64,000 nt of DNA from Escherichia phage T5 (NC_005859.1), one strand, 5' to 3'. Counted from the first letter of the stretch, positions 28,210-41,503 are shown. Notes: generated by a model from the letters alone, not told the origin. Program-made: numbers and translations.

Positions 28210-28286
28210 TGGTACTCCGGGAGGGATTTAAACCCCCGATCTCTCGGTTATCAGCCGAGTGCTTTAGATCGCTAAGCTACCGAAGT
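28210..28286 (-). tRNA. tRNA-Ile (anticodon GAU)
   Basis: hand-folded cloverleaf, CCA encoded; anticodon loop CTGATAA; T-arm GGGGG/TTTAAAT/CCCTC. Confidence 0.7.
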
Positions 28287-28301
28287 ATTAAAATATTTAC
28301 A

Positions 28302-28592
28302 TCACACACTGTCTAAGTAAGAAGTATAATGGAACTTAGTTTCTCCAGCCTTATCTACTTCTACCTCAGTTCGAGGTACTTGACGAACCACACCATAAAT
28401 CATCTTATATCGGATGCCTCTAGCTGGTTCATGATCTTTTGGAAATACTTGTTTGACCGTTACTACTTTATACCCTTCACGCGGTGTTAACACAACTACT
28501 TGATCACCCTCTTTGATTTTCCAAGAAGATGGAAATTCATAGGTGTATCTTTGGCCACCAGTTTGGAATACTACAGAAAGATAACGTTTCAT
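28302..28592 (-). CDS. hypothetical protein
   Basis: 96-aa ORF between tRNAs, downstream of canonical promoter. Confidence 0.5.
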   Translation of the reverse strand: MKRYLSVVFQTGGQRYTYEFPSSWKIKEGDQVVVLTPREGYKVVTVKQVFPKDHEPARGIRYKMIYGVVRQVPRTEVEVDKAGETKFHYTSYLDSV

Positions 28593-28622
28593 TTGGTTTC
28601 CCTCTCATTAACTTATATAAAT

Positions 28623-28651
28623 ATTATAGCAATAAATAAGAGAGAAAGCAA
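28623..28651 (-). promoter_or_regulatory. T5-type early promoter
   Basis: minus-strand TTGCTT-N17-TATAAT between tRNA-Thr and ORF 28302..28592. Confidence 0.7.
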
Positions 28652-28666
28652 ATGAATTTTTAAGTT

Positions 28667-28741
28667 TGGTGCTCCCACTAGGAATCGAACCCGGTTCAGA
28701 TGCTTACAAGGCAACTGCATCACCAACAATGCTTTAGGAGC
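28667..28741 (-). tRNA. tRNA-Thr (anticodon UGU)
   Basis: CCA encoded; anticodon loop CTTGTAA; one mismatch in each of anticodon and T stems. Confidence 0.6.
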
Positions 28742-28908
28742 GATGATCCCGTTATTTCAACGGGATTTCTTTTTCAAATACAGGGGATTTATCTGACATT
28801 ACTGTCATTGCCAACTGCTGAAGAAACTCGAAAGTTAGCTTTAAACGTTCTTCGCCTAATTCAATCTCAACGTATTTCTTTTGTTTGTCAACCTTTAATT
28901 TTAGGTTA

Positions 28909-29160
28909 TCAGCCATTAGAGAGTACAGTACTGGTAGTTGGCAATACTACAGATGAAGCAACAGTGTTTAAATGCTTTCTCCAGTCTAGGTTAAATTGTT
29001 TTCGAAACTCTTCATAAGGTTCTTCTGGATAAAAGCTAAAACCTCCTTTCTCATCATTCAGGATAACAGAGCCGTCAGTTTGTTCATATGCTCGATATGT
29101 TTCTCCAATAATGATAACTCGCTTATCAGTACTTTTATTACGAAACTCAAAAACGTGCAT
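28909..29160 (-). CDS. hypothetical protein
   Basis: 83-aa ORF. Confidence 0.45.
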   Translation of the reverse strand: MHVFEFRNKSTDKRVIIIGETYRAYEQTDGSVILNDEKGGFSFYPEEPYEEFRKQFNLDWRKHLNTVASSVVLPTTSTVLSNG

Positions 29161-29176
29161 AGTGTTTCCTTAAAGT

Positions 29177-29252
29177 TGGAGCGGCTAGAGGGAATCGAAC
29201 CCTACTCAGCGAGGCTTGGAAGGCCTGCGACACAACCCGTGTGCTTAACCGC
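29177..29252 (-). tRNA. tRNA-Gly (anticodon UCC)
   Basis: CCA encoded; anticodon loop CTTCCAA; acceptor stem 7 bp with one GU. Confidence 0.65.
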
Positions 29253-29259
29253 GATTATT

Positions 29260-29337
29260 TGGCAGGGGATATTGGATTTGAACCAATGATCTCGACTTCA
29301 AAGGCCGAAGCTTTAGGCCAAGCTAAGCTAATCCCCA
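29260..29337 (-). tRNA. tRNA-Gln (anticodon UUG)
   Basis: CCA encoded; anticodon loop CTTTGAA; perfect T-stem. Confidence 0.6.
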
Positions 29338-29343
29338 ATTGTT

Positions 29344-29419
29344 TGGCAGAAGGTAGTGGGTTCGAACCACGATCAGTGGTTTCAGAGATCCCAGCCTTAA
29401 CCGACTTGGCTAACCTTCT
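29344..29419 (-). tRNA. tRNA, anticodon arm atypical (possibly Gln-CUG)
   Basis: perfect acceptor stem AGAAGGT/ACCTTCT, D-stem AGCC/GGCT, T-loop TTCGAAC, CCA encoded; only 3/5 pairs in best anticodon stem. Confidence 0.4.
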
Positions 29420-39050: not shown

Positions 39051-39467
39051 ATGAGTAAATATGGTTTTGTAAACAACGGATTTAATCAACAAATGGGCTC
39101 CCAGCAGCCCGTTCCGGGTCTGGATAATCCTTACCTACAACAGTTGCAACAGCGTTTAGCAGAAGCGCAACAGATGCAGCAACAACTCCAGCAAAACCCT
39201 GGAAGTGTGAGTCCTATGCAAATGATGCAGCAAATGAGCGGGCAGTCGCAAATGCCTCAACAAATGCAGCAACAGGTGCCTCAGCAGCAAGTTCAGCAAC
39301 AAACCCAACAACCGCAGGTTTCTGCGGAAGGACAGGCAGTACTAGCCCTTTTCGAAGATTTCGCAAAGACAGAGGATGGGAAACAGCTTGTATCACTTAT
39401 GGGTAAGTTTAATAGCTTCTGCCAAAGCCAAGTTGCAAAAGCTCAAAATGGTGATAATAGCTCCTAA
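39051..39467 (+). CDS. glutamine-rich low-complexity protein
   Basis: 138 aa, ~30% Gln; SD GGGGAGGAG upstream. Confidence 0.55.
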   Translation: MSKYGFVNNGFNQQMGSQQPVPGLDNPYLQQLQQRLAEAQQMQQQLQQNPGSVSPMQMMQQMSGQSQMPQQMQQQVPQQQVQQQTQQPQVSAEGQAVLALFEDFAKTEDGKQLVSLMGKFNSFCQSQVAKAQNGDNSS

Positions 39468-39476
39468 GGAGGAATT

Positions 39477-39671
39477 ATGTGTTGCAGAAAATCTGTTTCG
39501 TGCTGCCCAATGCCTGTAGCACGTTGTTGCTCTCCAGCAATGTTTACACAAATACCGGCGTTCAATCCCTTTGCCTTTAAGCCTACTCTTATCCTGCCCC
39601 CTAGAGTAGATTTTCAGTCAAGATTGGCCTCCCGTATGGGTGGTTGCTGTAATAAGAGTATATGGTTCTAA
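39477..39671 (+). CDS. Cys-doublet-rich small protein
   Basis: 64 aa; four CC doublets; SD AAGGAGG 6 nt upstream; followed by strong terminator. Confidence 0.45.
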   Translation: MCCRKSVSCCPMPVARCCSPAMFTQIPAFNPFAFKPTLILPPRVDFQSRLASRMGGCCNKSIWF

Positions 39672-39688
39672 AGAACCAATAATAAAAA

Positions 39689-39720
39689 CCCCTAGTCGAA
39701 AGACTTAGGGGTTTTCTTTT
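39689..39720 (+). terminator. strong intrinsic terminator closing the plus-strand operon
   Basis: 9-bp GC-rich stem (CCCCTAGTC / GACTTAGGGG, one bulge), GAAA tetraloop, then TTTTCTTTT. Confidence 0.8.
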
Positions 39721-39740
39721 ATCTTAAATACAGAAAAGCC

Positions 39741-39772
39741 CTGCGCTCTCCAGGGAACACAGGGCTTACTTC
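39741..39772 (-). terminator. candidate terminator after SPFH gene
   Basis: stem AGCCCTG...CAGGGCT downstream of minus-strand stop at 39791; A-tract on plus. Confidence 0.45.
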
Positions 39773-39790
39773 GAATATTACATGTGGGTA

Positions 39791-40738
39791 TTACTTGTTA
39801 CGCATATCCATAATCATCTGGCCATCGTAACCAGTGCCAACTACTGTTTGCGGTACACCACCTTGATATTTCTGAGCACGAATCATTTCAACTTCTAGTT
39901 GTTTCCAGCGAATCATCTCAGGAGTAATAGTACGTTGCAGAGCGGCGTTAGCTTCGGCTTCTTTGTTAGCTGCGTACAGTTTAGCATCTGCATCACGTTC
40001 GTTTGCAATAGCCTGGTTGTTACGAGCTTCACGATCTGCTTCTGCTTGTTTAACCTTCTGCTGTGCTTCTTGTTCAACACGAGCCAATTCAGCTTTCGCA
40101 GCATTAACTTGTTCTTCACGAACTTTGGTATTCTGTACCTGTTCCATGATTACAGGCGGCAAAGTAATATCCTGAAGGAACACTTGCTTAACTGTGTAAC
40201 CATAAGGGCGTGCGTACTCTTCAACTTCCTGCTGAATTGCAGTTTGCAATTGTGCTTGAATTTTAGCATCAAACAAATCTTGTGCTTTAGGTACAGACTT
40301 ACCAAACTCACGAATAGTAGATAGTAATTTCTCAGTTACATACTTATCTAGAGCCTGATCCTGAGTACCTGCGTTAATACGGTTAATCGGTGCCTTAGAA
40401 CCATCAAACTGCAACATAACAGTCAGGTCAACAGTGGATTTAAACTTATCCTGGCTGGGAACCTGAAGTTTATCTAATTTTACAGCAATATCTTTTGTAC
40501 TAAAAGTATCGAAAGATGCAAATGGGTTTACAAGATGGAAACCAGGTAATACTGGGTTAGGATCTACTTTACCCAGAAATGTTTGGGTTTTAACCGTACC
40601 ATCAGAAACAATAGTATATGAATTAAAAGCTAGGATTAAACCTGCTAAACCAACCACAGCACCAATACCCCAACGTTTAATAGTGCGAACTACTTTTTGC
40701 TCAGAAGTCAGTTCTTTCATATTTTTAGTATTAAACAT
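39791..40738 (-). CDS. SPFH/band-7 (prohibitin/HflC-like) membrane protein
   Basis: 315 aa; N-terminal TM helix, SPFH-like core, long Ala/Glu/Gln coiled-coil C-terminus. Confidence 0.7.
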   Translation of the reverse strand: MFNTKNMKELTSEQKVVRTIKRWGIGAVVGLAGLILAFNSYTIVSDGTVKTQTFLGKVDPNPVLPGFHLVNPFASFDTFSTKDIAVKLDKLQVPSQDKFKSTVDLTVMLQFDGSKAPINRINAGTQDQALDKYVTEKLLSTIREFGKSVPKAQDLFDAKIQAQLQTAIQQEVEEYARPYGYTVKQVFLQDITLPPVIMEQVQNTKVREEQVNAAKAELARVEQEAQQKVKQAEADREARNNQAIANERDADAKLYAANKEAEANAALQRTITPEMIRWKQLEVEMIRAQKYQGGVPQTVVGTGYDGQMIMDMRNK

Positions 40739-40772
40739 ATATTTCCTTTGTTTTAGTTACAGTTAATAAAGT

Positions 40773-40847
40773 TGGCCGAGGTGACAGGATTCGAACCTGC
40801 ATAAAGGAATTTAGAAGACTCCTGCCTCTCCCTTAGACTACACCCCG
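40773..40847 (-). tRNA. tRNA-Arg (anticodon UCU)
   Basis: anticodon loop CTTCTAA; T-loop TTCGAAT; CCA encoded; immediately upstream of SPFH gene. Confidence 0.6.
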
Positions 40848-40899
40848 TTTAAGTATTTTTAAGAACTCTCGTAAAAACTCTTAAAAATACAGACGATAC

Positions 40900-41080
40900 C
40901 GGGAGAGTCATAAGTCTCACTCATTAAGTATTTCAAGACAAAATACAGTAACGTCTATTATTTTCCAGTTTATGTCAAGGTGACTATACTTACTTATGCA
41001 TATAAGGTCGCCATCTGGCAGATTACTCATAAGTCTTATAAAGTAAGTATTCCAGTTTAAGTCAAGGTGACTTAGTGGTT
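40900..41080. repeat. two direct-repeat units in a non-coding region
   Basis: CTCATAAGTCT...AAGTATT and CCAGTTTAWGTCAAGGTGACT each occur twice ~86-120 bp apart. Confidence 0.6.
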
Positions 41081-41431
41081 ATACACTGCATATACGAGTG
41101 CTCGGTTAGGTTAGGGTCATGACTCCCTACCTTTTGCTGCCCTCAACAGGAGTTATCGCGCGTTTACCTGTATGTTGTGCACCATTAGTCACGACTTTCA
41201 CGTGATCCTTTCCCACTTTGTTGGTAGCTTGAAAAACTACTCCGATATGGAGGAAAAACTTCACTACCTAGAATACCTTCTAAAGTTCTTCTTTAGCCTG
41301 GACATAGTTAAATCGTAATAAAACTATTCAGCAGACTGGTTGGTTAGTCTGGAACCAACTACCGCGTGGTTTAGGCAGTGCGCAACTAACCTCGGAAGCT
41401 TTTACGTTAAAAGCACCAGTTATCCAGTTCT

Positions 41432-41503
41432 TACCGACCGTAGGATTCGAACCTACATCTTCCACCAGTTACGGCTTGATAATACCGTTTATACTAGGTC
41501 GGC
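41432..41503 (-). tRNA. tRNA-like element, anticodon arm unresolved
   Basis: perfect T-arm GTAGG/TTCGAAT/CCTAC and 7-bp acceptor stem, but no encoded CCA and no canonical anticodon stem-loop found. Confidence 0.35.

Follow-up and report, generated by a model that had tools for sequence, protein, structure and literature searches.

In phage T4, the GIY-YIG homing endonuclease SegB is encoded by a freestanding gene that lies between transfer RNA (tRNA) genes and is co-transcribed with them. The segB mRNA is possibly impaired when the primary transcript is processed at the maturation of the downstream tRNA-Arg, and the same had earlier been proposed for the F-Tfl genes of phage T5 (PMC2330249, 2008). 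F-TflI and F-TflII, together with F-TflIV, are reported to be site-specific endonucleases from the tRNA region of T5 (Akulenko 2004, cited by PMC2330249 and PMC3326045), which has been a subject of study since the 1980s. The T5orf172 family is a GIY-YIG subfamily of homing endonuclease genes that is enriched in several phage lineages, including the T5-like phages (PMC10448857). Here, we analyze the tRNA gene cluster of Escherichia phage T5 in the left 64 kb of the 121,750-bp genome (64,000 nucleotides of NC_005859.1, hereafter the window). Two HNH homing endonuclease genes, F-TflII and F-TflI, and a putative GIY-YIG-type homing endonuclease gene, T5p067, have no stop codon of their own and terminate inside the next tRNA gene. 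We consider it likely that these are stop-less insertions into the cluster and that tRNA processing throttles the level of the nucleases that they encode.

Three nuclease genes terminate inside tRNA genes

F-TflII starts 1 nucleotide (nt) past the stop of ORF059, F-TflI starts 17 nt past tRNA-Leu, and T5p067 has a GTG start 21 nt past tRNA-Cys; all three lack their own stop codon. In tRNA-Gln(CUG), the first 23 nt (29397..29419) double as the final 7 F-TflII codons and their TAA stop; in tRNA-Ser(GGA), the first 14 nt (31022..31035) provide the final 4 F-TflI codons with a TAG stop; and in tRNA-Asn(GUU), the first 24 nt (34006..34029) double as the final 7 T5p067 codons with a TAG stop. With the tRNA ends set by ARAGORN, the overlaps are 23, 14, and 24 nt, respectively, and the stops fall in the D-arm region (nt 21-23 of tRNA-Gln, nt 12-14 of tRNA-Ser, and nt 22-24 of tRNA-Asn). 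An earlier reading of the window, made from the sequence only, had proposed these three open reading frames (ORFs) and their termination 14-24 nt inside the next tRNA. The ORF list returned all three at exactly the same minus-strand coordinates (Table 1), and the depth of the overlaps was confirmed by ARAGORN, Rfam, and curated GenBank records.

The tRNA 5' ends given by Rfam are identical to those given by ARAGORN in the case of tRNA-Gln(CUG) as well as tRNA-Asn, which score above the RF00005 gathering threshold of 29 bits, and for tRNA-Ser(GGA), which scores below it and is matched at the permissive threshold only. tRNA-Gly and tRNA-Tyr were likewise missed at the gathering threshold and, as with tRNA-Ser(GGA), were weakly recovered by the permissive run. 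Neither ARAGORN nor Rfam at either threshold moved a tRNA 5' end clear of the stop codons.

The overlaps are also found in public annotations. AY692264 annotates T5p059/tRNAQ2 and T5p062/tRNAS2, AY734508 annotates T5p067/tRNAN, and the record of phage BF23 (AJ604530) annotates four nuclease/tRNA overlaps of the same kind. In AY587007, the coding sequence features are correct, but the tRNA features are all 68 nt off the ARAGORN positions in the same sequence (for example, tRNA-Met is annotated at 1746..1821 versus 1814..1889 by ARAGORN). Because of this displacement, the overlaps are hidden in that record and the tRNAs seem to overlap the wrong gene ends.

The overlapping genes belong to two nuclease families

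Pfam searches assigned F-TflII to HNH_3 (1e-9) and NUMOD4, F-TflI to HNH_3, and T5p067 to MUG113/T5orf172. The HNH_3 scores of the two overlapping HNH proteins are 38.3 and 26.6 bits (cut-off 24.8), and the HNH motif EVDHKD...N...H is conserved in the family alignment. An exact-sequence look-up identified the protein of 193 amino acids (aa) as TFLII_BPT5 (F-TflII), the 194-aa protein as TFLI_BPT5 (F-TflI), and a 227-aa protein of the same cluster as TFLIV_BPT5 (F-TflIV). T5p067 scores 59.3 bits with MUG113 (cut-off 22.3) and 47.6 bits with T5orf172 (cut-off 20), and its sequence shows GFVY...YKIG...KERL...HEW, in which candidate residues of the GIY-YIG core (GxY, YxxG, Arg, Glu) can be seen by eye. 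Seven paralogues of T5p067 that adjoin other tRNAs also match T5orf172/MUG113 in Pfam, and the orthologue in phage DaisyDussoix is annotated as a "putative homing endonuclease".

F-TflIV has no tRNA downstream and ends with its own TGA stop at the native C-terminus of the family (...KSIKKNR, then stop); it thus serves as an internal control for the usual end of this protein family. The C-terminus of F-TflII reads ...KSIKK followed by KVSQVG and stop, and the six residues after KSIKK are encoded by the tRNA. In the alignment, such tRNA-encoded C-terminal tails are not conserved among family members.

Two further observations concern F-TflIV and its relatives. The 3' parts of the F-TflII (29416..29561) and F-TflIV (L002, 9173..9318) genes, corresponding to the C-terminal DNA-binding region, share 78% DNA identity and the N-terminal parts of the proteins differ, which suggests a domain exchange between the two genes. 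In phage S124, orf94 (L014, 6413..6874) is a truncated F-TflIV-like gene of 153 aa that has kept no more than its N-terminal section, with the helix-turn-helix and the HNH region, and extends 6 nt into tRNA-Leu; it probably represents a nuclease gene in decay.

The nuclease genes are gained and lost among T5-like phages

The three nuclease genes are mobile insertions that have been gained and lost among T5-like phages, because their distribution is sporadic, empty sites exist, and one loss has left an in-frame deletion scar. The whole region has matches in about 1,136 T5-like records. Record counts were made by megablast in an annotated phage collection and are lower bounds, as diverged copies are missed: the complete F-TflII+tRNA unit occurs in at least 17 phage records, the complete F-TflI+tRNA unit in at least 25, and T5p067 in 80 of the 409 records that match its site. 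For T5p067, a scan of viral contigs gave 8 loci, and the annotated phage collection was used for the counts instead. Comparison of the site showed that T5p067 is absent from S124, IME178, HildyBeyeler, mar003J3, and STG2. BF23 is without F-TflI and F-TflII, and the identity between T5 and BF23 breaks exactly at the F-TflII and F-TflI blocks, which take in flanking tRNA genes.

Empty sites were found for two of the genes. In ESCO40, tRNA-Leu and a T5-type tRNA-Ser(GGA) are 6 nt apart, and in S124, tRNA-Cys and a T5-type tRNA-Asn are 9 nt apart with no nuclease gene between them. Prefix and suffix matching of filled against empty sites placed the restart of homology to T5 at tRNA position -2 in ESCO40 and at +1 in S124. 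An in-frame deletion, located at the microhomology AAGA(A/T)CC, has eliminated F-TflII from phage FFH_1. The product, ORF60 (L019, 1554..1760), is a 68-aa hybrid of ORF059 and the last 13 F-TflII codons, and its stop is still the TAA in the D-loop of tRNA-Gln. Elw, WP85, and Es2 show the same 97-nt match pattern as the FFH_1 deletion. The proposal in the sequence-only reading that endonuclease genes inserted beside tRNA genes is supported by the sporadic distribution, the empty sites, and the FFH_1 scar; comparison with T5-like genomes that lack each endonuclease shows that not all relatives have the genes in identical places.

A protein cluster built at 90% identity joined F-TflII with many ORF059-family proteins of 64-66 aa. 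We rejected this grouping, as the two have no mutual similarity; fusion ORFs like FFH_1 ORF60 probably produced it as an artefact.

tRNA maturation as a probable throttle on nuclease expression

We propose that F-TflII, F-TflI, and T5p067 are freestanding homing endonuclease genes that were inserted into short inter-tRNA gaps. Each occupies the whole gap, starts 1-21 nt past the upstream gene, crosses the tRNA leader, and reads into the downstream tRNA up to a stop triplet in the D-arm region. The genes lie at the borders of blocks with replaced neighboring tRNA alleles.

Nuclease genes and tRNAs probably lie on one precursor transcript, as the sequence-only reading had supposed, because they overlap physically, the annotated early promoters P13b and P14b lie upstream, and a sequence search revealed no convincing terminator between a nuclease gene and its tRNA. 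The 5' end of every mature tRNA is generated by ribonuclease P (RNase P). A cut by this enzyme at tRNA position +1 would fall 14-24 nt upstream of the nuclease stop codon, and the last 14-24 nt of the nuclease message, stop codon included, would therefore be lost. One RNA molecule could then give rise to either a terminated nuclease message or a mature tRNA, and only unprocessed transcripts would yield properly terminated nuclease. Non-stop mRNAs are normally rescued in bacteria, and their products are normally degraded. Processed nuclease messages would be such non-stop mRNAs, and a potentially toxic nuclease would be held at a low level. The geometry that this needs is present at all three loci, with nuclease stops 14-24 nt beyond the RNase P site of the tRNA, and we infer that tRNA maturation probably throttles nuclease expression.

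Junctions in relatives and alternative explanations

We surveyed 19 relatives with ARAGORN and an ORF scan and classed the ORFs by BLAST and Pfam. Twelve of the 14 nuclease/tRNA junction types stop within the tRNA, between +6 and +39 nt relative to tRNA position +1, with stops formed by triplets of the tRNA 5' region, for instance TAG at U8-A9-G10. HNH genes stop at +23 in tRNA-Gln(CUG), +14 in tRNA-Ser(GGA), +10 in tRNA-Asp, +8 in tRNA-Pro, and +6 in tRNA-Leu. T5orf172 genes stop at +24 in tRNA-Asn (+10 for a second gene type at tRNA-Asn), +10 in tRNA-Lys, +15 in each of two variants at tRNA-Glu, +15 in tRNA-Leu, and +39 in tRNA-Arg. The other ORF families beside tRNAs mostly stop 0-21 nt upstream, and any overlapping variant occurs in 6 of the 24.

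The overlap is commoner among nuclease genes than expected by chance. In T5 alone, 3 of 3 nuclease ORFs and 0 of 7 other tRNA-adjacent ORFs overlap a tRNA (Fisher p = 1/120), and among the relatives the ratio of overlap to none is 10/0 for the first ten nuclease junction types versus 6/18 for the other ORF families (Fisher p = 6e-5, with the ORF059 family left out of the nuclease class, corrected by hand). The junction types are phylogenetically non-independent, however, and the p-values are indicative only. Several further points weigh against a regulatory role of the overlaps. Two nuclease junctions have no overlap: a T5orf172 gene abuts tRNA-Pro with its stop at 0 nt, and a 160-aa HNH_3 gene stops 37 nt before a pseudo-tRNA. 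Some small non-nuclease ORFs overlap tRNAs too (tRNA-Cys +14, tRNA-Val +10, tRNA-Met +6). tRNA-Ser(GGA) may not be a functional tRNA, being an ARAGORN call with a sub-threshold Rfam match only and a pseudogene flag in AY587007. Moreover, a passive origin fits much of the pattern, and the tRNA region is very compact overall.

This passive origin is possible, although we hold it to be rather unlikely as the whole explanation. Selection for compactness, or recombination boundaries at conserved tRNA edges, would have trimmed the 3' ends of the insertions, and the ORFs would run to the first stop in the tRNA with no regulatory role. In a null model of 175 tRNA alleles in three frames each, at least 25% of tRNA/frame cases reach their first in-frame stop by nt 10, since the triplet U8-A9-G10 is TAG, and 54% reach it by nt 24; the distance of 14-24 nt is therefore unremarkable. 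It also fits that resident ORFs end 0-21 nt from tRNAs, that homology between filled and empty sites starts at the tRNA edge, and that a few non-nuclease ORFs overlap as well. What passive trimming leaves unexplained is the absence of an own stop in 12 of 14 nuclease junctions versus 6 of 24 other ORF families, and F-TflIV shows that the family is able to carry one. In the null model, 29% of frames stay open through the entire tRNA, whereas the overlapping junctions all stop within 39 nt. What is non-trivial is that the nuclease ORFs themselves contain no stop codon. A broader form of the throttle model, in which the tRNA-adjacent nuclease genes of Demerecviridae would be a selected stop-less class that takes its stops from U8-A9-G10 or the D-loop, is subject to an RNase P throttle, and drives the turnover of tRNA alleles, some of them anti-defense, is a tentative extension.

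Alternatively, the overlap could be a linkage device. In phages without the nuclease, the enzyme would cut the tRNA gene or the junction between two tRNAs, and the overlap would weld the nuclease gene to a cleavage-resistant tRNA allele, forming one cassette that replaces the resident tRNA. The tRNAs downstream of nuclease genes are indeed strongly divergent alleles with the same anticodon. tRNA-Asp, tRNA-Arg(UCU), and tRNA-Gln(CUG) hardly vary among nuclease-less genomes, and their alleles in nuclease-bearing genomes are very different; for example, the T5 tRNA-Gln(CUG) allele is strongly unlike that of 13 genomes without the nuclease gene. The divergence blocks between T5 and BF23 take in flanking tRNAs, T4 SegB drives the preferential inheritance of its tRNA region (PMC2330249), and nuclease genes have been reported as markers of exchange boundaries between phages (PMC10448857). 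However, linked alleles also occur without the nuclease, namely tRNA-Ser(GGA) in ESCO40 and smaug, tRNA-Asn in S124, and tRNA-Glu in several genomes, and the tRNAs for Pro, Leu, and Lys are polymorphic whatever the nuclease genes. We therefore rejected an exclusive association of these alleles with nuclease-bearing genomes for tRNA-Ser(GGA), tRNA-Asn, and tRNA-Glu, where linked alleles without a nuclease are as predicted by a cycle of gain and loss. On these grounds, we regard linkage as a possible, though rather unlikely, reason for the overlap.

Some tRNA alleles of these phages are unusual in themselves. T5-like phages without T5p067 have a GUU-anticodon tRNA (L013, 9781..9860; L015, 9775..9860; L017 and L027, 9915..9997 in each; all on the minus strand) that is 80-86 nt long as annotated and 83-86 nt by ARAGORN. 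It has a long class II-like variable arm (GGGTCGTTAGCC...GTCGAAAGACAAC...). Such an arm is unusual in a tRNA-Asn and puts the identity of its amino acid in question. The tRNA-Asn of Salmonella phage Kenya-K45 (L012) is chimeric: the 5' two-thirds correspond to the allele of nuclease-less genomes, the 3' end is T5-type, and the acceptor stem is mismatched, which looks like a recombination scar. A tRNA-Glu in L010 (8905..8998 after re-orientation) reaches a length of 94 nt through an internal tandem duplication of some 19 nt (AATCTGAGAATCGGAGTTC, two copies) that extends from the 3' side of the anticodon arm to the start of the T arm.

It is improbable that the nucleases are domesticated helpers of the tRNA cluster, which would, for instance, promote recombination or amplification of anti-defense tRNA genes and would not be purely selfish. 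A T4-type SegB is reported to amplify its tRNA locus and thereby escape Septu (PMC13096335), and T5 tRNAs reportedly counteract PARIS as well as retron Eco7, but each nuclease gene is absent from most T5-like phages, and a deletion scar and truncated copies exist. Finally, an artefact of mis-set tRNA ends or non-coding ORFs, to which the displaced tRNA features of AY587007 and the low Rfam score of tRNA-Ser(GGA) might point, is excluded by the agreement of the 5' ends among ARAGORN, Rfam, and two curated records and by the above-threshold Pfam nuclease domains of the ORFs, two of which are the named and reportedly characterized enzymes F-TflI and F-TflII.

Extent and content of the tRNA cluster

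Over its 13.6 kb, the region shares 99.9% identity with AY587007 (Escherichia phage T5). ARAGORN detected 22 tRNAs within 28210..41504, and pooling of ARAGORN, Rfam, and curated annotation gives a total of about 25 (Table 1). The sequence-only reading had counted about 24, which is a fair number against ARAGORN, Rfam, and the curated records, but it listed one tRNA-Gln where two exist.

Table 1. Features of the T5 tRNA gene cluster, with positions in the window.
Feature	Position	Strand	Description	Support
T5 tRNA gene cluster	28038..41504	-	Minus-strand array of about 25 tRNA genes with small stable RNAs and short ORFs	ARAGORN, Rfam, AY692264, AY734508, BF23 AJ604530
tRNA-Met	28038..28113	-	Just outside 28210..41504	ARAGORN
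tRNA-Gly	about 29177..29252	-		Curated records
tRNA-Gln(CUG)	29344..29419	-		ARAGORN; Rfam RF00005, 39.1 bits
F-TflII (T5p059)	29397..29978	-	HNH homing endonuclease, 193 aa	ORF list, Pfam, exact match TFLII_BPT5
ORF059 (T5p060)	29980..30180	-	Conserved, 66 aa; immediately upstream of F-TflII; left edge of the F-TflII insertion	T5/BF23 identity ends near its 3' end
tRNA-Ser(GGA)	30942..31035	-		ARAGORN; permissive Rfam full-length tRNA-clan match 30946..31035, 39 bits
F-TflI (T5p062)	31022..31606	-	HNH homing endonuclease, 194 aa	ORF list, Pfam, exact match TFLI_BPT5
Early promoter P13b	31991..32075	-	Upstream of the unit holding F-TflI and F-TflII	AY692264 feature 31994..32078 (= window + 3), annotation by T5 authors
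tRNA-Asn(GUU)	33952..34029	-		ARAGORN; Rfam RF00005, 55.4 bits
T5p067 (ORF065)	34006..34524	-	T5orf172/MUG113 (GIY-YIG-type) putative homing endonuclease, 172 aa	ORF list, Pfam
Early promoter P14b	34760..34835	-	Upstream of T5p068, tRNA-Cys, T5p067, and tRNA-Asn	AY734508 feature 1080..1155 (= window - 33680), annotation
tRNA-Trp-like gene	about 35177..35247	-		Curated records
F-TflIV	36379..37062	-	Third HNH endonuclease of the cluster, 227 aa	Exact match TFLIV_BPT5
Additional tRNA	37089..37163	-		Rfam

At one end of the cluster, 41431..41504 was called by ARAGORN as a tRNA-Ser with the anticodon ACT and scores 38.3 bits in Rfam; curated records place it within the stable RNA "RNAX" or list it as a pseudo-tRNA, and it is probably a degenerate tRNA. 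A 341-aa ORF on the opposite strand (38004..39029, plus strand) lies within the tRNA region, where curated records have a shorter hypothetical protein; a Pfam search with this ORF gave no match.

Comparison with known systems

The overlaps in T5 and their interpretation are already known: the enzymes have names, GenBank carries the overlaps, and the idea about processing has appeared in print. The genes F-TflI and F-TflII as well as F-TflIV described previously (Akulenko 2004; Swiss-Prot) are the same genes from the same T5 tRNA region, with exact matches to the 193-, 194-, and 227-aa proteins. For T5 itself, our analysis adds little, and the comparative generalization across relatives is a modest extension and not a new kind of system. 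The comparative picture may nevertheless be of modest use, as it suggests a simple rule, amenable to testing, by which selfish nucleases are held at tolerable levels within tRNA operons. It also points to a possible route by which tRNA alleles, which are known to counter tRNA-cleaving defenses, could move between T5-like phages.

T4 SegB shares with the T5 genes the freestanding position between co-transcribed tRNA genes (PMC2330249), but it differs in nuclease family from two of the three overlapping T5 genes. The segB stop lies 5 nt upstream of tRNA-Arg without overlap (T4 RefSeq; L023, 3174..3919), whereas the T5 stops lie 14-24 nt inside the tRNA. We had considered segB as a true overlapping analogue and rejected it on the basis of this 5-nt gap; it is near-abutting only.

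The T5orf172 genes of ICP1 and other phages (Barth, Dunham and Seed 2023, PMC10448857) share their domain with T5p067, are sporadic, and are located at boundaries of exchanged sequence. Most T5orf172 members in that survey have CapR-type zinc-finger DNA-binding domains. In T5p067, whose nuclease activity is predicted, and in its paralogues, the N-terminal region is instead free of cysteine over about 70 aa; unlike the members of that survey, these genes are tRNA-adjacent.

Integrative elements that insert at tRNA genes are likewise mobile, have a boundary at a tRNA gene, and leave the tRNA intact. These elements integrate at the tRNA 3' end by means of an integrase and bring along a duplicated piece of the tRNA. 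The T5 nuclease insertions have neither an integrase nor a repeat; their boundary is at the tRNA 5' end, and they borrow the tRNA sequence as a coding tail and stop codon.

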